A DNA stretch of 64,000 bases from NCBI GenBank assembly GCA_036141575.1, contig JAYZXF010000017.1:78077-142076 (forward strand), in the 5' to 3' direction. The notes under the pieces were generated by a model that saw only the letters and a list, made by a program, of their open reading frames with translations, was not told the origin of the DNA and ran no database searches. Shown here one piece after another: positions 5,967 to 57,291 of this stretch. Position numbers and translations under genes: made by a program. This DNA comes from Pseudomonadota bacterium. GTDB taxonomy: Bacteria > Pseudomonadota > Alphaproteobacteria > UBA2136 > JAPKEQ01. How positions within the stretch are numbered: the first letter of the stretch is position 1; each line of letters opens with the position of its first letter.

Positions 5967-7670
5967 TTAGTCATCCAAACCTGGACGAGTGTCATCAGTT
6001 ACGGGTTTCAGTGGGGTTACAACTTTTGGCGCTGTTGTTGTTTCTTCAATCTTAGCACCTGTTGCTGCGTCACCTTTCACAACACCAAACAGGAAGGCTC
6101 CTTCGTTCCAGAATTCTAGAGCGGCTTTCAGTTCGCTGTTGTAGCGGGCTGCACGTTGTAGAATTGTACGACCGTCAACACTTAGGTTATGACCTTCACC
6201 ACGGGCTTGTGCAATGGCTTCAATCGCCGTACGGCAAGCTGTTGCACCGCTGCCTAGGCCCCAAGGGTGACCCATTACTGATCCACCACACTGGATGATC
6301 ATGTCATCGCCCATTGCGTCCATCAGGCGAGGGAAGTGCCATGGGTTGTGTCCACCACCCACAGCAGGCCATACAGTGGCACCACCTACAGAGGGTTGGT
6401 CAAACATGATACCTGTTTCAACAGATGTTTTTGGTGCATCTTCAACAAGCATATCAACAATACCTTTCACGTGACGGCGGTTACCCGTATCACCACGCAG
6501 TGGACTACCGATACTTACCATGTCACAACCTGTGAAGCGAAGAAGCTTCGCAATCAGGCCTTCTGTCATTGTTGCGCTCATGAGGCTACGTCCGCCCATG
6601 GCACCAATAATCACATCGTTGTTCTGACACCAGTTCACCATGCTTGCAAGAGCACTCCAGCCGACAGCAGAGCTATCAACAATCATCATGTTGATGCCAA
6701 GCTCTTTTGCATATTCTGCACGAGCTGTCATATCTTCAACTGTTGGGGCACTAATGTTCACAGCGTGGTATTTCACTTCGCCCGTTTCTTGCTGTGCAGC
6801 AAAGGCAGCTTCAGCCACAAAACGGAAGCGACGGCGCCAGCTATTGTCTGGCAGGCTGTGCATCATGGTTGGGTCGGCAGTCATATCTACACCGCCTTTA
6901 AGTGTTTCGTACACCGCACGGCCGTACATCTTAGGTGATAGGCCGTTCATTGGGCGCATTGTGCTACTTAGCAGTGGGCGACCGTACTTGCTGGCAAGGT
7001 CACGCATACCAATCACACCGTATGAAGGTGTTTTAAATGTACGTGCAAGCCCAACAGGAATGCGGGCATCAACAATACGTGCACCTGTAGATGTAATAGG
7101 GGCACTGATCACGCTAATAAGGCTGACCATAGAGCCTGCTTCTACCATTTCTTGTGGGATGATCAGGCTTACGTTAACTGTAGAGCTATCTACGCGCTTT
7201 GTTTCAAGCAGTTTTACTTGTGGCACTGTCTCGTGGTCTACAAGAGAACCTGTCCAGCTTTCCACCCAGTCACCGTTTGCTGCGCTTACAAGAAGGTTAC
7301 CGCATTCGTTTTGGCTGAATGTTGTGTTCTCGTACTGGTAGCTAACAAGGATGTCTTGTTCTGGGTTAAAGCCTTGGTCTTCCTTACGGCGACCACGTGA
7401 GTCTGGCTTTTCATCAGTCGTTGGGGCTGCTACGGCTGCAAATGATGTCGTGCCGCCTGTTAGGCTGTCTAGCGATACACCAAGAACCGTGGCGATTTTA
7501 ACCACGTTATCTAGAGAAGGGCTTACTTGTCCGCCAAGGATGCGTGAGAGCGTTGCCATCGACACACCAGACTGGCGAGACAGGTCAGATGCAGACATGC
7601 CGTTCTTTTCCAAAATCTTTTTTAGAGCCTCAGGTAGGTTGTAAGGGCTCTCTGTTGTTTTCTTTGTCAT
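5967..7670 (-). CDS. XRE-family HTH fused to a RuBisCO large-subunit-like (non-catalytic) domain
   Basis: N-terminal Cro/C1 HTH ('MSASDLSRQSGVSMATLSRILGG'), then collinearity with Form I RbcL ('KYGRPLL', 'YGRAVYETLKGG', 'CGGSVMGHPWG'). Catalytic motifs are replaced, e.g. DFTKDDE becomes DMTADPT at 6867-6896. The ATG at 7670 has 'aaggaaa' upstream. Confidence 0.85.
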   Translation of the reverse strand: MTKKTTESPYNLPEALKKILEKNGMSASDLSRQSGVSMATLSRILGGQVSPSLDNVVKIATVLGVSLDSLTGGTTSFAAVAAPTTDEKPDSRGRRKEDQGFNPEQDILVSYQYENTTFSQNECGNLLVSAANGDWVESWTGSLVDHETVPQVKLLETKRVDSSTVNVSLIIPQEMVEAGSMVSLISVISAPITSTGARIVDARIPVGLARTFKTPSYGVIGMRDLASKYGRPLLSSTMRPMNGLSPKMYGRAVYETLKGGVDMTADPTMMHSLPDNSWRRRFRFVAEAAFAAQQETGEVKYHAVNISAPTVEDMTARAEYAKELGINMMIVDSSAVGWSALASMVNWCQNNDVIIGAMGGRSLMSATMTEGLIAKLLRFTGCDMVSIGSPLRGDTGNRRHVKGIVDMLVEDAPKTSVETGIMFDQPSVGGATVWPAVGGGHNPWHFPRLMDAMGDDMIIQCGGSVMGHPWGLGSGATACRTAIEAIAQARGEGHNLSVDGRTILQRAARYNSELKAALEFWNEGAFLFGVVKGDAATGAKIEETTTAPKVVTPLKPVTDDTRPGLDD

Positions 7671-7840
7671 TAAATTTTCCTTATATGGTAGCGAGCTACC
7701 ATTACGGTTATTCATTTACCTATTAAATGTAGTATCGCACAGGCTGTGCTTTTGCACAAATGGAAATATTGCAGATGTGGAAGAATTTCAAGGGCTGAAA
7801 TCAAAAAAATATCAAAAAAATAAAGGTGACTTTGTTTTTG

Positions 7841-10851: not shown

Positions 10852-10942
10852 GATGATTCTCCATGATGTGAAAGGTTGAGAAGGAAGGGTGAAAGCTTGG
10901 CCGGAAAACCGCCCAAGCAAGTATTATATTTCCTGTGTGCTC

Positions 10943-11998
10943 CTAGAGGAAACGCACGTCGTTGCGATGGAAGTAACGGGTTAGACCGAGACTTGCGCCC
11001 ATCCCAACAAGGAAAAGCATGACCAGAGCCCATGTTGGTGGGTTGATCTGGGATTTGAGGTAGGCAAACTGTTTCATCTGTGGGCGTACAAAGTGTGCGT
11101 CCACCTCTTCGGAGATGGCGTGCACAATTGCATGCGGGTCAGAAATAGTGCCAATGTTTTGAAGTTCATCACGCAGATACACTGCCATTTCTTCGTTGCC
11201 GTATCCGCCAGCCCAAGTGAGCACATGGGCCCAATTGATAGTGTCGGTTGCGTCAACACTCAGAATAACCACCACATCATTCTTGTTGAGACCATCCCAT
11301 GCGGCTTCAACTTTGAAGACATATTCACGGGATTTCTCTGTGGTGATGATCAGGTTCACGTTGGCCTGTTTACTTGGGCCAAGGTGAATCAGTTCCTGAT
11401 TCAGCAGATCTTGCCAGTGGTCAGCATCTTTCAAGCTGAAGCCTGAAGTCAGCACCCGGTGTGCACGGTAGTAGTCGAACACGCGTGGGTACTCAGGCAC
11501 GTCGGCCAGATGCTCATAGTCCAGCATTTGCGTTTTGTAGAGGCTGCCGTTGGCGGCCTGTACGTAGTTATCATAGGTGTGCTCAGTTGCAGCAGGTTCA
11601 CCAATAACCACTTCCGTGAAACGGGGTGGCTCTTTGGTTCCCTGACGGTTGATACGCCGAATGTTGAAGTCGCCAACATTGGTGTAAACACGCCAGTCAT
11701 AGTCGTGAGAGTGCTCATAGCATGTTTGGCAGGTCTGTTTACCGTCTTTGTCGGTGACACAATTGCATTGGTAGCTGTGTTCGCAGGAAACGCGAACACG
11801 CTTTTTGTCTGCAATTGAGCCGTTCCAAATTTCGGTATCAGCCATCATGCCTTTTTCGGTCAGCTTGTAGCCGCCAAAAACCAGCGCTGTCACGAGAACG
11901 AGCTGCATGAGGATTTCTTGCCAGTTCAGGTCATACTTCAATGCTTTTGCAATGAGAGGTGTGAGAAGGGGCAAGAGAAGAAGCCATGCAAGATACAT
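10943..11998 (-). CDS. membrane protein with Cys-rich extracytoplasmic region (351 aa)
   Basis: AAGGAG RBS. N- and C-terminal TM helices. Cys cluster 'SCEHSYQCNCVTDKDGKQTCQTCYEH'. Confidence 0.65.
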   Translation of the reverse strand: MYLAWLLLLPLLTPLIAKALKYDLNWQEILMQLVLVTALVFGGYKLTEKGMMADTEIWNGSIADKKRVRVSCEHSYQCNCVTDKDGKQTCQTCYEHSHDYDWRVYTNVGDFNIRRINRQGTKEPPRFTEVVIGEPAATEHTYDNYVQAANGSLYKTQMLDYEHLADVPEYPRVFDYYRAHRVLTSGFSLKDADHWQDLLNQELIHLGPSKQANVNLIITTEKSREYVFKVEAAWDGLNKNDVVVILSVDATDTINWAHVLTWAGGYGNEEMAVYLRDELQNIGTISDPHAIVHAISEEVDAHFVRPQMKQFAYLKSQINPPTWALVMLFLVGMGASLGLTRYFHRNDVRFL

Positions 11999-16655: not shown

Positions 16656-16745
16656 TTTTGTTGCTTAAATATTTTCATTTGTATACAGTGTGGAAGATTT
16701 CATCTTTATCTGACTTTTTTCTCGACTCTAACGGAGGATATATCC

Positions 16746-16994: not shown

Positions 16995-17016
16995 GCTGTG
17001 CGTAATCGAAAAAAAG

Positions 17017-17042
17017 AACCCCGTAGCTTATGCTGCGGGGTT
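17017..17042. terminator. bidirectional terminator
   Basis: AACCCCGTAGC-ttat-GCTGCGGGGTT (one G-U pair). Confidence 0.75.
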
Positions 17043-17055
17043 TCTTCTTGTCGTT

Positions 17056-17580
17056 TTATTTTCCGCGCACGTGAATGATGCGGATAATGGATGTGTCGCT
17101 CAGATCAGAGACATCGCCAAGCGACATGACTTGGCGCCGAATGAGGTTTCGAAGAAGTTCTTCTTCTTTATAGCTCACATCAATGAAAGGGTTGTGGCTG
17201 CTTCCAGCTTTGAAAAAAGTGCCGCCATATTGGTTGTCTTTGAGGGCAATATAAAAATATTTATGAGTCGCCGATTTCAAAAACTTCATTTCTTCAGATG
17301 TAAAGGGCACCAGTTCAATGCCGTTGTCCTTAGATTTTTCTGCCATGGCTTGCATGTAGCTTTTACCCTCTACCACACGGCAGATATTGGGTTTAAGTGC
17401 GCTATAGCCAGCGTTAATGACATCGCACAGTGCTTGCCACTCTCTCGGCGGAATGGGTTTAAGTTCATCGCCTTTGTGGGCATCGCGGTAATAACCGTGC
17501 TCTTCATTCACAAAGTAGAAACGCTGATGCGTATAAATGCGGGCGTAAACCAAAAGGGCGTCGTTGTTGAGTCGTTTCAT
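17056..17580 (-). CDS. hypothetical protein, 'WQxLC' paralog family (A)
   Basis: ATG at 17580 (MKRLNNDAL...) with GGAG upstream. Motif 'REWQALCDVI'. One of three tandem paralogs. Confidence 0.6.
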   Translation of the reverse strand: MKRLNNDALLVYARIYTHQRFYFVNEEHGYYRDAHKGDELKPIPPREWQALCDVINAGYSALKPNICRVVEGKSYMQAMAEKSKDNGIELVPFTSEEMKFLKSATHKYFYIALKDNQYGGTFFKAGSSHNPFIDVSYKEEELLRNLIRRQVMSLGDVSDLSDTSIIRIIHVRGK

Positions 17581-17676
17581 GGAGAGGCTCCAGAGAAAAA
17601 GAAAATCAAAGATATGAGTTGCCTTATTTTTACAAGGAGTAGAGAGGCTTGGCAAGGTGTTTCCTGCAAAACAAAA

Positions 17677-17692
17677 CAGCCCCGAAGGGCTG
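17677..17692 (-). terminator. rho-independent terminator
   Basis: CAGCCC-cgaa-GGGCTG. T-run on the minus strand. Confidence 0.7.
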
Positions 17693-17703
17693 TTTAGGTT
17701 CGT

Positions 17704-18276
17704 TTATTGGTCCCAGTAGACCCGCTGGTGCGGTTCTTGGCTCCAATAGTCTTCAAATGTGCCACCTGTATGGAGCAGGCCACGTTTGACGAGCTGCTGA
17801 ATGCCTTGTATCTCTGTGGGAGAAAGCTGGCTTTCGCGACGGCGAGGGGAACCTTCCTCTACCTCATAAAACCAGTGATAAATGCCCGTTTCCGGCTGAA
17901 AAATGAGAGCGCTTGCTTCACGGTGCTGAATGGCACGCAGAAGAGGAATCACGTTCTGTTCTTCTTTGCTGAAGGCGCGAGGGGTCACAAATGGTTCAGG
18001 GTTTGCGTGGATATAGTTCCCCAAAATAACCTGAAAAAGGGGCAGGCCTTCTACGTAACGGCCTTTTGTTGAGAGGGTTGTGAGTGCGTTACAAGCAAAG
18101 GCTTCGCACAGCACTTGCCAGTCTCGCAGGCTAATAGCAGGCAGTTTGGATTCACCAAGATGACCCTGCTTTTTAGGCTGGTTGATGTAAACGCCATGTG
18201 AGACTGTGATGAAGAATTGAACATCCATCTCATGGATGCGCTTCACCATTTCAGCAACCGCTTGAGATTGAGACAT
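17704..18276 (-). CDS. hypothetical protein, 'WQxLC' paralog family (B)
   Basis: ATG at 18276 (MSQSQAVAEM...). Motif 'RDWQVLCEAF'. Own terminator 17677-17692. Confidence 0.6.
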   Translation of the reverse strand: MSQSQAVAEMVKRIHEMDVQFFITVSHGVYINQPKKQGHLGESKLPAISLRDWQVLCEAFACNALTTLSTKGRYVEGLPLFQVILGNYIHANPEPFVTPRAFSKEEQNVIPLLRAIQHREASALIFQPETGIYHWFYEVEEGSPRRRESQLSPTEIQGIQQLVKRGLLHTGGTFEDYWSQEPHQRVYWDQ

Positions 18277-18364
18277 GTGAGATCCTTTCAGAAAAGGGAG
18301 GGAGATGTAAGATGTTGGGATTGTATTCAGTTTGGTGGTGTTATGCAAGTACACAAATGAAAAA

Positions 18365-18380
18365 CAGCCCCGAAGGGCTG
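18365..18380 (-). terminator. rho-independent terminator
   Basis: The identical CAGCCC-cgaa-GGGCTG hairpin. T-run on the minus strand. Confidence 0.7.
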
Positions 18381-18392
18381 GTAATAATCGCT

Positions 18393-19121
18393 TCAATCAT
18401 CTGCCGTCCAGAACGAAAAGATGCTCTGAGCTTCGAGGTGATAGTAAGGGGTCTTTTCACCAAGGGTGACAACGCCTTTATCAATCAGGCTTTGTAGAAT
18501 GACCATTTCATTCTCATCAAAGTCAAGCTCAACGCCCCAGTCGCCTGCAAACCAAACACCATGGTAGGGTTTGTTGTCTCTCCATTTATGGATCAGGCAG
18601 CAGGCATTCATATGCTCTGATGTAGAGTAAGCGTCATGGTCTTCCATGAGGTGAGAGGTGTCTTCGCCTGCATCCTCTGCGGCGTAGTACTCCTTAATGC
18701 ACCCCCGCTTAACATGCTGACCAGCAGGGAAGTGCCGTACGCGCGGGCCTGCGCCTGTCATGGCTTTAAGGAGCATGATCTCATCATTGCTGAGAGCTGT
18801 TGGCGAGGCTGGAGGCGGCGTTTCGGGCCTGTCGAGCGCGGACGCCTCAAGAATTTGATAGAATGTGGCGCCTTGCTCTTTCATGAGGCTAAGCTTCCAG
18901 TTACTATTTAAATGGGCGCGACCATCAGAGATGATTTTGCAGAGAAACTGCCACTCTTCAAGTGTAACGGGGAGTAGGTCGTCTTCATTGACGGGCACAT
19001 TTTCTTGGGTGTTCTGTGCAGCAAGTTTATATGCTCTTGTGTCTGACACAAAGTAGTAGCACAGCTGTTTTTCAATGCTGGCAACAATGTACTCTTCAAG
19101 GGCGATGCCTGAAAGTTTCAT
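18393..19121 (-). CDS. hypothetical protein, 'WQxLC' paralog family (C)
   Basis: Motif 'EEWQFLCKII'. Own terminator 18365-18380. Confidence 0.6.
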   Translation of the reverse strand: MKLSGIALEEYIVASIEKQLCYYFVSDTRAYKLAAQNTQENVPVNEDDLLPVTLEEWQFLCKIISDGRAHLNSNWKLSLMKEQGATFYQILEASALDRPETPPPASPTALSNDEIMLLKAMTGAGPRVRHFPAGQHVKRGCIKEYYAAEDAGEDTSHLMEDHDAYSTSEHMNACCLIHKWRDNKPYHGVWFAGDWGVELDFDENEMVILQSLIDKGVVTLGEKTPYYHLEAQSIFSFWTADD

Positions 19122-19257
19122 AAGAGAGCCTCCAAAAGAAAAAGGGAAAAGATAGATTTTGTGTATCCCTTTGTTACCTGAGAGGTTTTATTTTGCCAAG
19201 TGAATTATTTGAAAATGAGCATGGAAAAATCGGCATAGTTTGTGTATCATCCGGCTC

Positions 19258-20031
19258 ATGGCATACCACATTACCATCTTCACACAAGATAACACCAGCA
19301 GAGGCGGGCGTCATTTTAAGATCCGTAAACCTTTGTTTTGGATATGCTTAATGCTGTTTTTGGTGCTGCCATCTCTGGCGCATTACACAATTATTTTCCA
19401 CATTATGCCAACGTACGCCGTTAAAAAGGCGCAGGGTATGGAAGAAGAGATTACAGGCCTAGCCAGTGGTGTATATACTCTGGAAGAAGAGAACACTCTT
19501 CTAAAGGCGAGGCTCAAGAGCATTACAACAGAGCTTGAAGAAGAGCAGGCTGTACGTAGTGAGCTTGCAGCCCGCATTGCCATTGCTGAAAATGCGCGTT
19601 CATCTTTTGCCAATAAAGCCCAGCAGCTTGAGCAAGAAGTGATTGATCTACGTGCCAGCACCAAGTTTTACGAAGATATTCTAAACCCATCAGAAACAGT
19701 GGGTGAGCTTCAATGTTATAACATTACCACCAGTCTGAATAAGGGAACGCTTAAGTATGGCGTCAATTTCCTCCATCAAAACCAGAACAATACAACGTCT
19801 AAAAAATATAAAATTGTTGTCAATGTGATGAGTGGTGTGAAAGCATCAGATCTTGAAAATATGGAAATTCAAGACGGCGATGATGTGAAAGAAGTGAAGT
19901 TCAAGAAGTCTTACACAATGAAGGGCAGTCTCGATGTGACTTTGCCTGATAATAAGCTCCGCATGCTTGATGTGCGTGCTTACAAAGATGGGACAAATGA
20001 GCTTGTCGGTCATTGCTGGAAAGCTTTCTAG
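19258..20031 (+). CDS. membrane-anchored coiled-coil protein
   Basis: First ATG in ORF 19240-20031. One TM helix ('LFWICLMLFLVLPSLA') then a heptad-rich segment. The start is uncertain. Confidence 0.55.
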   Translation: MAYHITIFTQDNTSRGGRHFKIRKPLFWICLMLFLVLPSLAHYTIIFHIMPTYAVKKAQGMEEEITGLASGVYTLEEENTLLKARLKSITTELEEEQAVRSELAARIAIAENARSSFANKAQQLEQEVIDLRASTKFYEDILNPSETVGELQCYNITTSLNKGTLKYGVNFLHQNQNNTTSKKYKIVVNVMSGVKASDLENMEIQDGDDVKEVKFKKSYTMKGSLDVTLPDNKLRMLDVRAYKDGTNELVGHCWKAF

Positions 20032-20129
20032 CATATATAAAAATCATCTTTTACACGCTTCATTGCTTATGTATTGGTCCATACATGGCGCTCTTTATCC
20101 TGCAAAAATTGCTTTTTTATATATGCTAG
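20028..20129. repeat. perfect 16-bp inverted repeat pair
   Basis: CTAGCATATATAAAAA (20028-20043) and TTTTTATATATGCTAG (20114-20129), 70 nt apart. The left arm contains the TAG stop of 19258-20031. Confidence 0.8.
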
Positions 20130-20140
20130 AAATATATTAA

Positions 20141-20345
20141 AAGAAGTCTTCGTGGTGCTTCATAAACGAGTGCGTAGTGAAGCGGAGCCAAAACCTTAAG
20201 AGGTTTTGAGCGGTTTAAAGCATTTAAAAATAAGGCGGAGCATTATTTTTGAAAGTAAGGGGTTTAAACCAAGACCATGCTTTGCGAGTTATCGCCTTTT
20301 TGGAGCAGCGTAGCGAATGAAAAAAGCGAGAACATGAAGCAAAGA
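20141..20345. repeat. structured intergenic repeat family, copy A
   Basis: Roughly 80% identical by eye to B 58370-58545 over about 180 nt. Hairpin 20188-20208. Confidence 0.75.
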
Positions 20346-21685: not shown

Positions 21686-22255
21686 ATGCGTGATCAAAAT
21701 GGATACAGATCCGTAAAAGGAGAAATGGTCGTTGGATTTACCAACGACGGTAAGATGTATTCTACTCCTTTTAAGGAACATGACCCAAACTATGTTGGGC
21801 TTTCACATGAGGATAAAACAAGAGAACGTTACGTTGTGACGTTTAAAGAGCATGAAGATGGTAAGCTTGTTGTAAATTCACTTACACGTGACGATGCCTA
21901 TACAGATGAGATTAAAGCAGCCTTTGCAAGAGGTGAGGCCACAGAGCGTGATGTTGAGTATCATGTTAAGCCTGAAGGAAAAGAAATTCATGGTATGCTC
22001 CTTAAAGAAGGTCATGAAATTACCATGGTAGATCCAGATAAAGCAGGGGATTACCAAGCACAGCGAGAATTCGATGAAATGCGCGCAGATTTTAGTCAGT
22101 CACAGGAAGCTTTCGGTGAAAAAGTCCCTGTCACTGTAGATATGAATGAAATGGTTGTGACTCAATCACGCCAACAGTGGAGTGAAAGGGTGCACGGTAC
22201 AGAAGACCGTGATGCTGGTAACCAGCCAACTCGAGAATTTGAACAGTCTATGTAG
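21686..22255 (+). CDS. hypothetical acidic protein (189 aa)
   Basis: ATG with 'aggagg' upstream. Shares the module 'EDGKLVVNSLTRD' with the next gene. Confidence 0.55.
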   Translation: MRDQNGYRSVKGEMVVGFTNDGKMYSTPFKEHDPNYVGLSHEDKTRERYVVTFKEHEDGKLVVNSLTRDDAYTDEIKAAFARGEATERDVEYHVKPEGKEIHGMLLKEGHEITMVDPDKAGDYQAQREFDEMRADFSQSQEAFGEKVPVTVDMNEMVVTQSRQQWSERVHGTEDRDAGNQPTREFEQSM

Positions 22256-22276
22256 GCCTTAGGGAGGAACAGTAAA

Positions 22277-23194
22277 ATGTCTGAAAAGCACACAATGGTT
22301 TTTGAAAGAGATCTGGATAACGGAACTTTTGAAGCTTTGCACAAAGGTACAATGGAGCAGCGCGCAAAAGCGACTGAAGGTCAGGCTATGTCTGCTGCTG
22401 ATGCTCCAAACAAAGATACCTATTACATTACTGGTTCTAAAGGTGAGGATGGTGCATTTGTTATTGATGAAATTCATCGCTCTGGTGCATCTACAGTACG
22501 TTTTGCTCAACGCATGCAAGCTGATGAAGGCCTAAGCCAAGACCGTAGAAATGAAGAGTTTGAAGCTTATACACATCCAGAACATGTTGATGTTGAAGGT
22601 GTACGTTTTTCTGTTGGTGGCCCCATGTCTGGTGAGGTAAAGGACCTTGAACTTGCGACCTCTGACAGAGCGTATAAAACATTTGAAAATGCGGAGAAGT
22701 ATCTAGAGACTGCTGCCGTACATATTAACCATGGTGTTGGTGAAGCAGTACATGCGAATCAAAAAGCAGAGCGAGAGGCACCTGGACATGTATTTGAGAA
22801 GCAAATTGCATTTGGTCTAGAGCAAGATGGCCAGCTGTTTGCTGAAGAAGTATATAGCCAAGATCATATGCCTGGTAGAGATGAGTGTATGATGCAGCTT
22901 GGAAGAGATCATGACGGTCAAGTTGTTGTGACTCAGCTTTCTCGTAAAAGTGCTGTTTCAGGTGAGGAACCTCAGCTACAAGATTCAGTACATTTTATGG
23001 GGCAAAAGTTTGAGGTCGGCCAGCCGGTTGGAGAGCTAGAAGCGCATGGTAACTTTAGCCCGGAGCAAGCTGAAAAAGTACAGGCAGTGATGACGAATAT
23101 GCGTCATAGCTACATTCGTACAACAGGTGAAGCCCCAGAGCTTAAGCCGGGACGTGAGATGGAAATGCAAGTTGACGACGGTATGTCTCGTTAA
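22277..23194 (+). CDS. hypothetical acidic protein (305 aa)
   Basis: ATG with 'gggagg' upstream. Modules 'EDGAFVIDEIHRS' and 'HDGQVVVTQLSRK'. Terminator about 23208-23232. Confidence 0.55.
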   Translation: MSEKHTMVFERDLDNGTFEALHKGTMEQRAKATEGQAMSAADAPNKDTYYITGSKGEDGAFVIDEIHRSGASTVRFAQRMQADEGLSQDRRNEEFEAYTHPEHVDVEGVRFSVGGPMSGEVKDLELATSDRAYKTFENAEKYLETAAVHINHGVGEAVHANQKAEREAPGHVFEKQIAFGLEQDGQLFAEEVYSQDHMPGRDECMMQLGRDHDGQVVVTQLSRKSAVSGEEPQLQDSVHFMGQKFEVGQPVGELEAHGNFSPEQAEKVQAVMTNMRHSYIRTTGEAPELKPGREMEMQVDDGMSR

Positions 23195-50848: not shown

Positions 50849-52951
50849 GTGATGGCTATAAAAAGAACAAGAAATATCGTCCTAAGCGCTGTTTTAACGG
50901 CGGTTTTCTTGCATTCTGAAAGCCTTTACGCACAAAATTTCCCAGATAGCGCTCGTACAGAAAGCATTCTAAAGAGCTTAGAGCCTGTCAAAACACCTGA
51001 TGCAGACCTTGAGAGAAGCACGCTTCCAGATAAACCTGAGCCTATAGCCACACAACCAAAGGCACAGGAAAAGTCTGACAGCGAGCCACAAAAGGCTGAT
51101 ACAAAAGATGAAAAACTTCCTGACGTAGAGACAGAGGATATCAGTAGCGGTCTTGGTATCGCCAAAATTCAAAAAGCTGTGCCGTCTGAGCCTGAGTTTG
51201 AGGTAAAAACCATTGAGGTGAAGGGAAGTACTGTATTTGATGAGCGGGCACTTCGTCCATACCTTGCTGCGATGGAAGGAGACTGGCAAACCTTGTCTAA
51301 ACTTAAAGGCCTAGCCGACACACTGACACGCTTGTACCAATCTGAAGGGTACATTTTGTCGCGTGTGGTGGTGCCAGCGCAGGAAATTACATCTGGCCAC
51401 GTTGTTCTACAAGCGGTGGAAGGCAGCATTCAAGATATTCACTTTGTGGGTGATCTCCCAGAAGAGGGACGCTTGATCCAGAAGTATGCAGAAGAAATTA
51501 AAAAGTCAGTGCCTCTTAACATTAAGCAACTTGAGCGCTCAACGCTTCTTATGAATGACCTACCGGGTCTGAGCGCAAAGGCGGTACTTAGCCCTGCAAA
51601 AGATGTGACACAGCGTTTTGAAACGGGTGTAGATACAACGCAGCAAAGCTATAAGCTTCGTCAAACGCTCAAAGCGATGGGGCTTACTGAAAACCAAATT
51701 GGTAACTATGTGGATATTGTTGGCGCTGTACAGGCTGCTAATGTGAAGCAAGTTCAAGCGACAGACCTATCTCTCATCCTGCAAGGTATGGGTATTCCTG
51801 ATAACCAACGTAAGATTCTTGTAAAGAAAGCTGTTGAAGCTTCAGACCGTAACCGCTTGCAAAGCAATACACAGCAAGTGACAGAAGCACTCGTGTCTCT
51901 ATCTGACCTCAATATTTACATTGAGAGCAAAGAGAAAACAGCAAGCCTAGCCATTGATAACTTCGGAACCAAGTTTGTGGGCCCAATTCAAGTGACGGGT
52001 GCGCTGAGTATTGCCCATGACGATGAGGCCCGTAGTGAAACCTCTCTAGGCTTTAGTACATCTGCTGATATGAAAGAGATGAAGTTTGGTGAAATTAAGC
52101 ACAAACGCCAAATTGGCGATAAAGGAACCACTGTAGAAGGGACATACAGTATTGCACGCTCTGAGCCGGGCAGCACGCTTGCTGACCTTGAGTTTGAAAG
52201 TGCATCTGATGTAATTGGCGTAACGGTAGAACATCCTGTAATCCGTAGCCGTAGTAAAAACCTAAAGGTTCGTGCCACAGCTGATGCGCGTAGCAGTGAG
52301 GTGAAAACACTTGGTGACCGCTTTAGTAAAGATACCACGCGTAGTGTGCGCCTTGGTGCAACATATGACTTTGCTGATGAGTACAAAGGAATCAACCTTA
52401 TTGATGTGGAATTGAGTAAAGGCCTAGATATTCTTGGTGGTGACGATAGATCAACAACGTCACGTGCAGATGGCCAGCAGGACTACACAAAGGTTGCTGC
52501 TCAGCTTTCGCGTCTGCAACGACTTGGTAAGTTTACCAACCTTCTCGCCACTGTACGCGGTCAGTATGCCTTTAACCCACTTCTAGCGAGTGAAGAGTTT
52601 AGCTTTGGTGGCGCGTCTCAGGGGCGTGGATTTGACCCAGCAGAGCTTACGGGTGACCATGGTATTGGCGGTACACTACAGCTTTCGTATGACTTGCCAA
52701 TGTGCCGTAAGTGCCTGAAAGATATTAGTATGTACGGTTTCTATGATGCGGGTATGGTCTGGGAAGAAAATGGCGGTACTGGTGATGATAGAAGCTTTGC
52801 TTCAAGTGCGGGTCTTGGTGCAAGTATGAACTTTACAGATAAGCTTAGCGGTAAGATTGAGTTTGCCAAGCCTTTGGTTGGTTCGCGTGGCAATGATAGC
52901 GAAGATGCAAAAGCACCTGTGGTGTTAATGCGCCTAAAAGGACAATTATAA
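50849..52951 (+). CDS. two-partner secretion outer-membrane transporter (ShlB/FhaC/HecB family TpsB)
   Basis: Signal peptide. POTRA 'IEVKGSTVF...LYQSEGYILSRVVVPAQEITSGHVVLQAVEG'. C-terminal beta-barrel. Directly upstream of tpsA. GTG at 50849 or ATG at 50852. Confidence 0.85.
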   Translation: MMAIKRTRNIVLSAVLTAVFLHSESLYAQNFPDSARTESILKSLEPVKTPDADLERSTLPDKPEPIATQPKAQEKSDSEPQKADTKDEKLPDVETEDISSGLGIAKIQKAVPSEPEFEVKTIEVKGSTVFDERALRPYLAAMEGDWQTLSKLKGLADTLTRLYQSEGYILSRVVVPAQEITSGHVVLQAVEGSIQDIHFVGDLPEEGRLIQKYAEEIKKSVPLNIKQLERSTLLMNDLPGLSAKAVLSPAKDVTQRFETGVDTTQQSYKLRQTLKAMGLTENQIGNYVDIVGAVQAANVKQVQATDLSLILQGMGIPDNQRKILVKKAVEASDRNRLQSNTQQVTEALVSLSDLNIYIESKEKTASLAIDNFGTKFVGPIQVTGALSIAHDDEARSETSLGFSTSADMKEMKFGEIKHKRQIGDKGTTVEGTYSIARSEPGSTLADLEFESASDVIGVTVEHPVIRSRSKNLKVRATADARSSEVKTLGDRFSKDTTRSVRLGATYDFADEYKGINLIDVELSKGLDILGGDDRSTTSRADGQQDYTKVAAQLSRLQRLGKFTNLLATVRGQYAFNPLLASEEFSFGGASQGRGFDPAELTGDHGIGGTLQLSYDLPMCRKCLKDISMYGFYDAGMVWEENGGTGDDRSFASSAGLGASMNFTDKLSGKIEFAKPLVGSRGNDSEDAKAPVVLMRLKGQL

Positions 52952-53016
52952 ACAACTGACAGGCGGAAACATTAATAAAACCGCTTATAAGAACTTAAGG
53001 AAAGTAAAACATTAAC

Positions 53017-56000
53017 ATGCTGAAAATGTTGAGGGAAAGTAAGAGTCTAACGGCCCGTTATATCCGTGGTCTGCTTTCTGCTGTGCTGACATTTTCACCG
53101 GTACTTTCTTATGCTGGCCCAACTGGCGCGGCAGTTCAAAGTGGCAATATCATTATTTCTCAGCCAGATGCAGCAAGTACACTTATCCAGCAAGGTACCC
53201 ATAAAGGGATCATTAACTGGCAAGACTTTTCCATTGGTGCAGGTGAGAGTGTTCAGTTCCAAGTGCCTTCAGCTCAGGCAAAAACATTAAACCGTGTAAT
53301 CGGTCATAATGTTTCTGATATCCAAGGCGCACTCAGCAGTAATGGACAGCTTTATCTTGTAAACCCGAACGGGGTGATCTTTGGGGCTGGCTCTCGCGTA
53401 GATGCGGCAGGCCTCCTGGTTACAACTTCTAATGTTTCAGATGAAGATTTCCTAAATAACTTTTTGAATTTACAAGAGGCTTCTGAAGGTTCTGCCATTG
53501 TGAACAATGGTGATATCTCGATTAAAGATGGCGGCTTTGCCTTGCTTGTTGCCCCACAAGTGGTGAACAACGGAACCATTATTGCGCGCTTTGGTAAAGT
53601 GGGTATTGGTGCAGGTTCTAAAGGAACCATTGATCTTTATGGTGATGGGTTGATTCAGTTTGAACCATCAAGCGATGTTGCAAATCTTGTGAATAACGGC
53701 GTCATTCGCGGTGGTTATGTAGAGCTAACCGCAGCAGATGTAGACGCCCTCCTTAAAGGTGTTGTGCGTGTAAACGGTTTTGTAAGTGCAGACCATGTGG
53801 TGATTGAAGGGGGCGAAAACTCTATTGTACGCCTGAATGGTTCAGTCATAGCGCAGCGTGAAGCTGAGCAAATTGGTGGTCGCGTAGATGTACTGGGTGA
53901 CCTAGTTTCTCTACTTGAAAATACTGATATTGATGTTTCTGGTGAACTTGGCGGTGGTCAAGTCCATGTGGGTGGAGACTACCAAGGTAAAGGTACGCTT
54001 AAAACAGCTACAACTACATATATGACTGCAGGCGCAGAGATTGATGCCAGTGCTATCCGTATGGGTGATGGTGGTAAAGTGATTCTTTGGGCTGATGGCA
54101 CCACACACTTTGCAGGCGATATTGTCGCGACTGGTGGTTCTGATGGCGGTGATGGTGGTTTTGTTGAAACCAGTGGTAAGGGGCAACTTGCCTACCGTGG
54201 TGCAGTGGATGTAACTGCTGAAAATGGTGATATTGGTTCACTGCTTCTTGACCCTGAAAATATTACAATTTCATCTGATCCATTTACACCAACTGATCTG
54301 GCAGGTGGTGTGTATTGGTTTGACCCAAGCGCCGTTGGTGGTGTGAACACAACGGGTAGCAATGTGACTCAGATTAATGACCTGATTCCAGGCGTGGGTG
54401 GTTCTAATAACGCCACGCAAGGCTCTGCAGCTCTTCAAGCTGAACTTGTAGCAGCAGGCCTTAACGGTCGTGATGCGCTCGATTTTGATGGCGCAGATGG
54501 TTATGACATGGCCAACAATGCATCTATCAACACCTCAGGAAGTACCGACCGTATTATCCTCATTGCCTTTAGAACAGGCGCAGACGTAACAAGCCAGCAG
54601 TACCTGTATGAGCAGGGTGGTGGCTCTAACGGTTATGGTATGTATATTGAGGCAGGGCAACTTGTTGTCGCGGGTTGGCGTAACAGTAGCGGTAGCTGGA
54701 ACAACTACGCAACAACTGCAGTTACACCAAATACCACTTACGTGGCAGGTTTAAACCTAGATAACAACACCATGAGTGCATGGGTAAACGGCGATAAGTT
54801 CCAAACATATAACAACACCAATGGCCAAAATGCCCATAGTGGTGGTATTGACCTCGGTCGTAACGGAGATACCCGTGACGCTTCAGGGAGCCTTGGCGCT
54901 TGCTGTAACTTCCTTGGTCAGATAGGTGAAGTAATTCAGTACAACACAGCCGCAACAGATGCTGAAATGCAGGAAGTGTCTCAGTATCTTGCGCTTCAGT
55001 GGGGTGCAACGCTAGATTCACCAGGCACAGATTACACAATTTCACTTGAGAACCTAGAGGCACAGCTTGCTGGCGCAAACATTACCCTTCAGGCTGAAGA
55101 TAACATCACCATTGATGATATTGCTGATGATAGCCTAGACCTTGCCATGGACGGCACAGGCAGCTTTACACTGATTGCTGATAATGATGCAGACGGTGTG
55201 GGTACCATTAGTATGGACGCCTCAGACGCCATTGTGACCCAAGGTGGTGATATCACCATGACGGGTGCCGTGATTGATGTGAATAATATTACAAGTAACG
55301 GCGGTGACGTAACACTCAGCGCAACAGCAGCCCTTACAGCCGATGTAATTAATGCCGGTGCAGGTAACATTGCCCTGACAGCTGACAGCAATAACGATAG
55401 CGCAGCTGTGGCTCTTACAACGTCTGATCTGACTGCTGATGGCATTACGCTAACTGGTGGGTCGGATAATGATGATATTCTCAACCTCTCTGGCACCATT
55501 AGCAGTGGAGCGGGGGGCTTAAGTCTCAATAATTTTGCAAGTGGTGACCTCGATAACGCCACAATTGATACAAATGGCCAAGCCTTTAACAGTGCCATTA
55601 ACTTTACGCTAAGCGGCGCAGGGGTAAGTACGATTCAAACTGGCGGTGGTGATATTACGCATTCTGGAACCTTTGATGGTACGGAAGGACTTATTTTAAA
55701 CGCTGGCGCTGGTAATATTGACCTCAGTGGTGCAGCTGGTGGTGGTACAGCTCTAACCAGCCTCACAGCAACAGGTTCTACTATTCAGCTGGATGATGTG
55801 ACAACGGTTTGGCATCAAAACTATACGGGTGCAACCACAACCAATGGCGACCTTGCTGCCACGGGTGCAGGTAATGTGCGCTTTGTAAATAATGTTACGT
55901 TGGGTGCGGATACCAACATCACAACCAATACTGGAGATATTGACTTTGGCGGCACGGTTGATGGTGGGCAAGCGCTTGTGCTAAATTCGACATCTGGTGA

Positions 56001-57291
56001 TTTGATTACGACAGGTGACTTTGGTGGCGGTGCAGCACTGACATCTTTGAATGTGGGCACAGCCAATGCCGACCTACAAGAAGTGACAACAACGGGCGGC
56101 ATTACAGTTTCTGGTATTACAACATATAACGATGACCTTAACGCTGGCGGCGCATTAAATCTATCAGGTACAGGTACGCTTGCTGCTGATACAGTCTTCC
56201 AAAGTACGGGCGGCGGTATTGTAACGCTTGGCGGCACTCTTAATGGTGCCCAAAACCTAACGGTTACAACAGGTGGGCTTTTAAATCAGGGCGCAACAAT
56301 TGGGGGCGGTACACGCCTTACAAGCCTTACTTTAAATGGAGCAAACACACAGCTTACCGGTGATATCTACACAGCGAATGCTCTCAGCTTTGGCCTGAAT
56401 ACCAACCTTGGTGCACGTGTGGACTCTCTAGATACGGTCATATTTAACAACGCCCTAACGCTTGCGGGTGCAAGTACTGTTGTAGGAGCTAATGGTATTA
56501 CCTTTAACGATACCGTTAATGGGGCACAAGATCTAACTGTAGAAAGTTCAGCAGGTGACATTAGCTTTGCAGGTAATGTGGGGAATAGTTCTGCCCTGAA
56601 TACGCTGACAATTACAGATACAGGCAACCTTACATTTGGTGCCGATGTGACCCTTGCAGCGCTTGACCAGCAAGCTGGCCGTGCAACAACAAGCCTTGGC
56701 TCTAACTTTAACAGTACTGGTAACGTAGATATTCTTGGTGTGAATATTAATGGTGATATTCTCAGCGCTGGGGATGTGATGTTTAATGTAACAGGGAGCG
56801 TCACAGGTCAATTGTTTGCAAACAGCTTTGCACTCCAAGCAGAAAACAGTGACCAAACCGGTGAAGTGAATAGTATTGGCGGCTTGGATGCTCTAAAAGA
56901 GATTCAGTTTACGCAGTTTGGTGCAGGCCCACACTTGTTTAACGGCTTTATTCTACCGTATGAAACCATTATTCAAGCCACATCTACTGGATATGAAACA
57001 ACGCAAATTAACCGTGCGGGTCGCTCGCTATCTGGTGGCTTTGTAAGAACCATTTCAGATCTACCAGATCTTGAGATTCTTAAGAGTGCAGGGCGTGCAC
57101 GTGTAAGCCGCATTGCGCCAACAGATGCCAGCTTTGCTAAACTTGCTCTAGGTTCAGATAATAGCCTCGTTGTGAACCCTTTCCTTATGGACTTTAGAAG
57201 TGTGGATATTGAACCTGGCACAGAGCTCTTCTATAACCCATACCCATACCTAGAAAAGAGCGTGTGGAACTGGCTCTCTTACAGAGACTAA
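53017..57291 (+). CDS. filamentous-haemagglutinin-like TpsA exoprotein with internal LamG-like domain
   Basis: TPS domain 'INWQDFSIG...LNRV...LSSNGQLYLVNPNGVIFG', beta-helix repeats, and a ConA/LamG-like insert around aa 480-650 ('LYEQGGGSNGYGMYIEAGQLVV'). Confidence 0.88.
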   Translation: MLKMLRESKSLTARYIRGLLSAVLTFSPVLSYAGPTGAAVQSGNIIISQPDAASTLIQQGTHKGIINWQDFSIGAGESVQFQVPSAQAKTLNRVIGHNVSDIQGALSSNGQLYLVNPNGVIFGAGSRVDAAGLLVTTSNVSDEDFLNNFLNLQEASEGSAIVNNGDISIKDGGFALLVAPQVVNNGTIIARFGKVGIGAGSKGTIDLYGDGLIQFEPSSDVANLVNNGVIRGGYVELTAADVDALLKGVVRVNGFVSADHVVIEGGENSIVRLNGSVIAQREAEQIGGRVDVLGDLVSLLENTDIDVSGELGGGQVHVGGDYQGKGTLKTATTTYMTAGAEIDASAIRMGDGGKVILWADGTTHFAGDIVATGGSDGGDGGFVETSGKGQLAYRGAVDVTAENGDIGSLLLDPENITISSDPFTPTDLAGGVYWFDPSAVGGVNTTGSNVTQINDLIPGVGGSNNATQGSAALQAELVAAGLNGRDALDFDGADGYDMANNASINTSGSTDRIILIAFRTGADVTSQQYLYEQGGGSNGYGMYIEAGQLVVAGWRNSSGSWNNYATTAVTPNTTYVAGLNLDNNTMSAWVNGDKFQTYNNTNGQNAHSGGIDLGRNGDTRDASGSLGACCNFLGQIGEVIQYNTAATDAEMQEVSQYLALQWGATLDSPGTDYTISLENLEAQLAGANITLQAEDNITIDDIADDSLDLAMDGTGSFTLIADNDADGVGTISMDASDAIVTQGGDITMTGAVIDVNNITSNGGDVTLSATAALTADVINAGAGNIALTADSNNDSAAVALTTSDLTADGITLTGGSDNDDILNLSGTISSGAGGLSLNNFASGDLDNATIDTNGQAFNSAINFTLSGAGVSTIQTGGGDITHSGTFDGTEGLILNAGAGNIDLSGAAGGGTALTSLTATGSTIQLDDVTTVWHQNYTGATTTNGDLAATGAGNVRFVNNVTLGADTNITTNTGDIDFGGTVDGGQALVLNSTSGDLITTGDFGGGAALTSLNVGTANADLQEVTTTGGITVSGITTYNDDLNAGGALNLSGTGTLAADTVFQSTGGGIVTLGGTLNGAQNLTVTTGGLLNQGATIGGGTRLTSLTLNGANTQLTGDIYTANALSFGLNTNLGARVDSLDTVIFNNALTLAGASTVVGANGITFNDTVNGAQDLTVESSAGDISFAGNVGNSSALNTLTITDTGNLTFGADVTLAALDQQAGRATTSLGSNFNSTGNVDILGVNINGDILSAGDVMFNVTGSVTGQLFANSFALQAENSDQTGEVNSIGGLDALKEIQFTQFGAGPHLFNGFILPYETIIQATSTGYETTQINRAGRSLSGGFVRTISDLPDLEILKSAGRARVSRIAPTDASFAKLALGSDNSLVVNPFLMDFRSVDIEPGTELFYNPYPYLEKSVWNWLSYRD

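Follow-up and report, generated by a model that had tools for sequence, protein, structure and literature searches.

A tandem array of predicted double winged-helix-like proteins in a hypervariable island of marine Alphaproteobacteria

Three tandem genes, here called A, B and C, lie on the minus strand between rpsI and a divergent DUF6776-bactofilin-hexapeptide operon, in a 64,000-nucleotide stretch of a Pseudomonadota metagenome-assembled genome (MAG; GenBank assembly GCA_036141575.1, contig JAYZXF010000017.1, positions 78,077 to 142,076; GTDB lineage Alphaproteobacteria, UBA2136, JAPKEQ01). This whole stretch is hereafter called the window, and the coordinates refer to it unless a relative is named. 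The original prediction, made from the letters of the sequence, regarded the three genes as individually terminated paralogs of an unknown family. Here we describe the genes, the predicted structure of their products and the variability of their locus, and we weigh what the proteins may do.

Genes A, B and C and their family

The three genes are as follows.

17056-17580, minus strand: gene A, 174 residues from its ATG, basic (pI 8.7)
17704-18276, minus strand: gene B, 190 residues from its ATG, near neutral (pI 6.2), with a short, A-like architecture
18393-19121, minus strand: gene C, 242 residues from its ATG, strongly acidic (pI 4.8, net charge -18)

Longer versions of A and B that start with TTG also appear in the list of open reading frames (ORFs). 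We prefer the ATG starts, because a GGAG or AGGA Shine-Dalgarno sequence lies 6-7 nt upstream and because these starts match independent gene calls and the lengths of the orthologues. A CT-rich leader and a GGAG or AGGA at this distance precede the ATG of all three genes, and an intrinsic-terminator-like hairpin stands 3' of each gene, all three of them located by a scan. The signals around the genes are listed below; L numbers denote sequences of relatives, of which L001 is the sister of the window.

17581-17672, minus strand: promoter and leader of A (TTGCCA-18-AAAAAT, CT-rich leader, GGAG), about 88% identical to L001 and L018
18277-18360, minus strand: upstream region of B (CT-rich leader, AGGA), with the candidate promoter TTGCAT-17-TACAAT (18348-18320), which was chosen by eye, is under the promoter-scan threshold and was not reported by the scan
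18361-18393, minus strand: terminator after C and short 3' untranslated region, copy 1 of a 33-nt direct repeat
17673-17705, minus strand: terminator after B and short 3' untranslated region, copy 2 of the ancestral C terminator
17016-17043, strand not assigned: bidirectional intrinsic terminator, a different hairpin, common to A and a convergent 82-residue gene, conserved in L001 and L020

The similarity among the three proteins is significant. Pairwise BLASTP comparisons give E values of 1e-5 (A-B), 1e-6 (A-C) and 4e-4 (B-C). In hhalign, the A-type and C-type profiles match with a probability of 98.6% (E 7e-16, 152 columns), while the full length of B matches the A profile (E 1.3e-8), and its match to the C profile covers the N-terminal 96 columns (E 8.5e-9). 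The claim of three tandem paralogs, each with its own terminator, therefore stands. The reading frames are intact in about ten lineages. A, B and C are thus real paralogs of an orphan family that is restricted to one lineage, and their signals indicate that they are transcribed separately.

The shared motifs that had been proposed are real. F23, W48-Q49, L51-C52, the 'S/T..E...L' helix and the C-terminal 'L..LI..G' helix are all confirmed, but two details had to be corrected: the last motif of A in the window ends in Q, not G (LIRRQ), and WQxLC is not universal, as two wider C-type lineages have F[SK]xLS. The sizes were rightly said to diverge through insertions (174, 190 and 242 residues), which lie mainly in the second module of C. 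In A, residues 1-88 are kept among the relatives, whereas residues 89-174 are hypervariable. The N-terminal module of C is A-like, and its expanded second module contains the conserved motifs Y.AE..GE[DE]T and W[FY].GDWG.E. The charge of the proteins is also split by type. All A-types are basic (pI 8.4-9.6), all C-types are strongly acidic (pI 4.6-5.2, net charge -12 to -19) and B is near neutral; this split is kept across every allele class despite the divergence.

How widely is the family distributed? For A, B and C, Pfam and NCBIfam yield no family at E <= 1, PHROGs yields nothing below E 0.1 and PADLOC yields no match, and a 7-sequence family profile finds no PDB sequence at E <= 10. The family is thus, as had been supposed, unknown by sequence in these resources. 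With a 3-sequence profile, 5.8 billion proteins were searched by word index and 1.84 billion representatives exhaustively by HMMER; only 6-7 proteins were recovered, and all of them lie at the same locus. A richer 10-sequence profile, applied to the 5.8 billion proteins, added none and again stayed within the same clade. A scan of the GTDB genomes added two more MAGs of this clade, labelled 'Alphaproteobacteria bacterium ANT-120' and 'uncultured Magnetococcales bacterium', and scans of JGI metagenomes and of IMG/VR found no relatives, none being on viral contigs. The relatives, about ten distinct ones, are confined to one clade of uncultured marine alphaproteobacterial MAGs. Among the NCBI proteins of the MAG that contains the window, only A, B and C belong to the family, so the genome encodes three copies, to the extent that the MAG is complete.

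One further match was set aside. P0009, a 780-residue repeat protein, matches over a 34-residue stretch around 'DWEVFC' in six repeats, with an overall E of 8e-4. The lead that it offered to Death or death-like domains was rejected, because only the 'DWEVFC' helix matches and the family module is alpha+beta, not an all-alpha six-helix bundle. We regard the resemblance as a coincidence at the level of the motif.

Predicted structure of the modules

The AlphaFold2 model of A, built from only seven sequences, is confident, with a mean predicted local distance difference test score (pLDDT) of 88 and a predicted template modelling score of 0.81. Its first half consists of a helix (6-16), two strands (20-24, 29-33), a second helix (45-56) and two further strands (61-70, 73-79). 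In the second half, a helix (95-104) is followed by strands 109-114, 121-125 and 132-134, a helix (137-148) and strands 152-159 and 164-171. In this model, A is an internal duplication of two winged-helix-like modules of about 85 residues, each composed of a helix, a beta-hairpin, a helix and a beta-hairpin 'wing', and the protein is predicted to be cytoplasmic. A profile-profile comparison of the two halves lends the duplication modest sequence support: the 'EWQxLCxxI' helix of the first half aligns in register with the 'E..L..LI.KG' helix of the second (P = 0.009).

Foldseek found no full-length match in the PDB (best E 0.046, TM <= 0.22). The matches of winged-helix-like fold are dominated by the MarR, ArsR, PadR and Fur regulators, and the middle helix (helix 2) of the helix-turn-helix (HTH) is missing from the predicted modules of A. 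We therefore call the modules winged-helix-like rather than canonical, and the assignment of both halves to this fold is weak but consistent. The invariant positions are mostly those of the hydrophobic core and of an S/T-x-x-E helix capping box, with no catalytic-looking constellation, and so speak against an enzyme. In the N-module, the helix that would serve for recognition is acidic and hydrophobic (PREWQALCDVIN).

The interval between rpsI and the DUF6776-bactofilin genes

The gene order is the same in every relative: rplM-rpsI, a small convergent gene, A and C, the divergent DUF6776 gene, and the genes for a bactofilin, a hexapeptide-repeat protein and a class-I aldolase. The number of family members varies, with C alone in L016, C and A in most lineages, and C, B and A only in the population of the window. 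The segments of the island discussed below are as follows.

17045-17345, minus strand: variable 3' half of A, a mosaic or replaced segment, with the same pattern against L018
16746-16994, plus strand: convergent 'gene X', 82 residues, not a family member, inside the same variable island
19122-19257, strand not assigned: intergenic region separating C from the divergent DUF6776 gene, 136 bp, with the conserved blocks GATGATACACAAAC, TTTTTAAATAA, CTTGGCAAA ... GGTAACAAAGGGATA

The divergence of A and C from their counterparts in L001 far exceeds that of the surrounding genes. The neighbouring proteins are 97-99% identical, with non-synonymous divergence (dN) of 0.003-0.03 and dN/dS (omega) of 0.02-0.06. 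In contrast, A is 68% identical (dN 0.22, omega 0.24) and C is 83% identical (dN 0.105, omega 0.17), and the dN of both exceeds that of the neighbours 10- to 70-fold. The N-module of A is 89% identical, with a synonymous divergence (dS) of 0.39, whereas its C-module is 47% identical and has a saturated dS. At the DNA level, the identity to L001 drops from about 90% to about 55% at position 17345 and remains low across the convergent gene as far as the rpsI terminator. This mosaic break in A coincides with the domain boundary.

A second relative, L018, shows a similar pattern. It is as close to the window as L001 (RplM and RpsI 99.3% identical), yet its C is 29% identical to that of the window and 56% identical to the C of the more distant L003 lineage. 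The N-part of its A is 84% identical to the window, while the C-part is 21% identical to the window and 52% to L003. Along the DNA, the C-A spacer and the 5' half of A are 85-90% identical to the window, and the C gene and the 3' half of A are at background level. Both variable parts of L018 are thus closest to the L003 type (56% and 52%), a hint that they travel together. High allelic diversity and cassette exchange, with sharp mosaic boundaries, are accordingly found among close relatives. Taken from the alignments, these patterns mark the interval from rpsI to DUF6776-bactofilin as a recombining, hypervariable island, in which deeply divergent alleles of C and of the C-module of A occur within near-identical genomic backgrounds.

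In an allele of A that is 97% identical, 10 of the changes are synonymous and 6 non-synonymous, indicating purifying selection within the allele class. This ordinary selection rules out ongoing hypermutation of the variable half, of the kind produced by diversity-generating retroelements, and no reverse transcriptase gene was noticed among the scanned neighbouring genes. The diversity appears to reflect old, recombining allele classes rather than ongoing hypermutation.

The terminators bear on the origin of gene B. The 16-mer CAGCCCTTCGGGGCTG, a stem with a UUCG-type tetraloop, occurs exactly twice (17677-17692 and 18365-18380), against 0.00 copies expected in shuffles. Both copies are embedded in the 33-nt direct repeat (17673-17705 and 18361-18393), which is 82% identical and spaced by 688 nt. 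In all lineages, a CAGCCCT[TA]CGGGGCTGTTTT terminator stands 3' of C, and the window sequence from the B terminator to the ATG of A matches the C-to-A spacer of the relatives. B is therefore flanked on each side by a copy of the ancestral C terminator. The original prediction had read the identical stems as duplication of a unit that included the terminator. The terminator was indeed duplicated, but B is not a recent duplicate made in place from A or C, because it is only 23-28% identical to them (local BLASTP alignments, N-terminal parts). Either B is an old paralog that the other lineages lost through recombination between the repeats, or a divergent cassette was recombined in at the terminator. 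B is limited to the population of the window (the window and the Logan assemblies L014 and L015, the former identical to the window base for base), and it was not found in L001, L003-L013, L016, L018 or L021-L024. A 15-nt inverted match (16672-16686 and 18349-18363) was set aside, as by our estimate about 0.3 such matches are expected by chance.

The divergent intergenic region behaves differently from the coding sequence of C. Its blocks can be aligned with L001, L003, L013 and L016, even in lineages whose C protein is only about 30% identical, and 57-58 of 60 positions are identical to L001.

Several observations concern other parts of the locus and of the window. Gene X is a single-repeat form of a protein that has two repeats in relatives (167-188 residues; L001 10586-11152, L003 3782-4285, L018 1452-2000). 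Its family is lineage-specific, with the repeat unit 'GK.S...[FY]..L.AL.KA..L.W.DF' and a weak SHOCT-like DUF1707 match (E 0.1). In L016, the slot of A (10855-11577, plus strand) holds an unrelated secreted Cys-repeat protein of 240 residues with a signal-peptide-like N-terminus and no Pfam match, which contains two repeats of 'DLCIGTYT...C.KC.GGA.GWKLVGSWDNDGGE.SGINFSSL...SLHNLVNLCA'. The alignment suggests that the DUF6776 gene starts at 19258 (257 residues) instead of 19351, and our literature search on DUF6776 found nothing relevant. The spacer between DUF6776 and bactofilin includes about 200-300 bp (20045-20345) that have no counterpart in L001, amid a region of about 90% identity. Downstream of the hexapeptide-repeat gene, at a position kept in the relatives, two successive genes (21686-23194, plus strand) encode acidic proteins of 189 and 305 residues with no Pfam match.

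Farther away, a 582-residue ORF (5967-7715, minus strand) joins a Cro/C1-type HTH_3 domain (residues 31-84, E 4e-13) to a RuBisCO large-chain catalytic domain (residues 234-536, E 3.5e-62). This ORF could be a real HTH-RbcL fusion or the product of an over-extended start; the fusion is also called in L001 (17129-18832) and L016 (17831-19528), where a RuBisCO small subunit gene follows. A two-partner secretion (TPS) pair at 50849-57291 (plus strand) consists of a ShlB/FhaC-type transporter (700 residues, POTRA_2 and ShlB), followed by a 1424-residue TpsA with a TPS domain. The whole window contains no Rfam match and no tRNA, and no integrase was found near the array.

Possible functions of the array

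What do the proteins do? We tentatively favour the reading that A and C have a non-enzymatic binding role and form a polymorphic cognate pair, and we put its chances somewhat below even. The conserved N-module of A would be a scaffold or a unit for docking the partner, and the variable C-module of A and the protein C would carry the specificity and co-vary. The basic A would bind nucleic acid or another acidic target, and the acidic C would bind or antagonise A through like-with-like contacts between modules. Diversifying or frequency-dependent selection would keep many alleles, as in self/non-self recognition, immunity or defence, and B would be an extra divergent cassette that entered or was kept through recombination at the conserved terminator. 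A more specific version is unlikely: a hitherto undescribed polymorphic two-partner recognition or conflict system made entirely of paralogous double winged-helix-like proteins, in which the C-module gives the basic A its specificity and the acidic C is the cognate binder or antagonist, alleles being swapped as cassettes at the promoter and terminator anchors and extras such as B being stacked in tandem.

Several points weigh against such a pair. L016 has C without A, and thus the pairing is not obligatory. The co-variation of C with the C-module of A rests on four or five lineages, and the window and L001 do not clearly co-vary (83% for C, 47% for the C-module of A). L018 is a scaffold with an N-gap inside A, and a second assembly, L019, confirms only its junction of C with the N-part of A. 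In the model of C, the N-terminal module reappears (pLDDT 80-92), but the expanded second module is poorly modelled. No toxin, nuclease or other effector gene adjoins the array, where PADLOC found nothing. Finally, the fast evolution could reflect relaxed constraint combined with exchange among relatives.

The proteins might instead be transcription factors of the classical winged-helix type that work as single-chain pseudo-dimers and control the divergent DUF6776-bactofilin-hexapeptide operon or themselves. The prevalence of MarR, ArsR, PadR and Fur regulators among the fold matches speaks for this, as do the basic charge of A and the divergent arrangement of C and the DUF6776 operon around a well conserved common control region of 136 bp. 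In addition, the C-terminal 'L..LI.[KR]G' looks like the last part of a recognition helix with the beginning of a wing, as known from winged HTH families. The family nevertheless differs from these regulators in several ways. No HTH model of Pfam or NCBIfam matches even at E = 1, the predicted modules have no HTH middle helix, and two modules are predicted per chain instead of a homodimer. The equivalent of the recognition helix is poor in basic residues, being acidic and hydrophobic in the N-module (PREWQALCDVIN), and C carries a net charge of -12 to -19 in every lineage. Moreover, conservation is far higher in the intergenic DNA than in the proteins (the control region still aligns in lineages whose C is 29-34% identical), which is the opposite of what a repressor and its operator predict. 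We consider this role unlikely, though not negligibly so.

Nearly the same weight, and only marginally less, falls to the idea of an array of orphan immunity or antitoxin-like genes, or of another component of a defence island, directed against a toxin or phage factor encoded elsewhere. This idea overlaps with the cognate pair and differs from it mainly in placing the partner outside the locus. As in polymorphic immunity and identity loci, divergent paralogs stand in tandem, each with its own promoter and terminator, deep allelic classes occur in near-identical backgrounds with extreme diversity, cassette-like replacement is bounded by conserved sequence, and the copy number varies. Many immunity proteins of nuclease toxins are small, cytoplasmic, non-enzymatic and acidic, as is C. 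Unlike the immunity arrays of polymorphic toxins, however, the locus is fixed in a housekeeping context beside rpsI, not at the 3' end of a toxin operon. No toxin, Rhs, contact-dependent inhibition C-terminal domain, nuclease or delivery gene adjoins it, and the TPS pair is about 32 kb away. PADLOC, PHROG and Pfam give no match to an immunity family, neither an integrase nor a tRNA is nearby, and relatives are absent from the viral contigs searched. Orphan immunity is not our first choice, despite the signature of diversity, because no toxin adjoins the genes and no known immunity family matches them.

It is rather improbable that the proteins are adaptors or accessory factors of the bactofilin module, or tandem winged-helix scaffolds like ScpB (a KITE protein) or ESCRT-II, with the variability reflecting weak constraint. 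The array adjoins DUF6776-bactofilin in every lineage, and the size and predicted two-module layout of the proteins resemble ScpB. All of these genomes, however, are close relatives (ribosomal proteins 91-100% identical), so the common gene order carries little functional weight, and a would-be partner that falls to 29% between equally close genomes is difficult to square with bactofilin and DUF6776 proteins that are 97-99% identical in the window and L001. With KITE proteins (ScpB, MukE) and ESCRT-II Vps22/25/36, the family shares no sequence similarity, including no match to the SMC_ScpB model of Pfam (PF04079) at E = 1; in the model of A, its modules lack one member of the canonical three-helix core, the second helix. 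Among the scanned neighbours, no gene was found for an SMC protein or a kleisin, the partners of a KITE protein, and to our knowledge hypervariable alleles and a basic/acidic pair of paralogs are not features of KITE proteins. The last alternative, that the ORFs are spurious or are decaying pseudogenes within a variable intergenic region, would fit their orphan status, high divergence and lack of known domains, but it is effectively refuted by an omega far under 1, the intact frames, the Shine-Dalgarno sites and terminators, the pLDDT of the A model and the significant homology between the paralog profiles.

The array owes its novelty to the sequence family, which is new, and to its proteins being an unusual variant of the tandem winged-helix type. 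Even if A and C do not form a cognate pair, the array is still a clean case of an internally duplicated orphan family whose fold can be predicted with confidence, and it still shows that a conserved intrinsic terminator can anchor recombination for the gain and loss of gene units. If the pairing and the diversifying selection are true, the array would be a compact new module for strain-level recognition, immunity or defence, built only of winged-helix-like binding proteins, in an uncultured group of marine Alphaproteobacteria, and the allele classes within near-identical genomes would offer a natural experiment.

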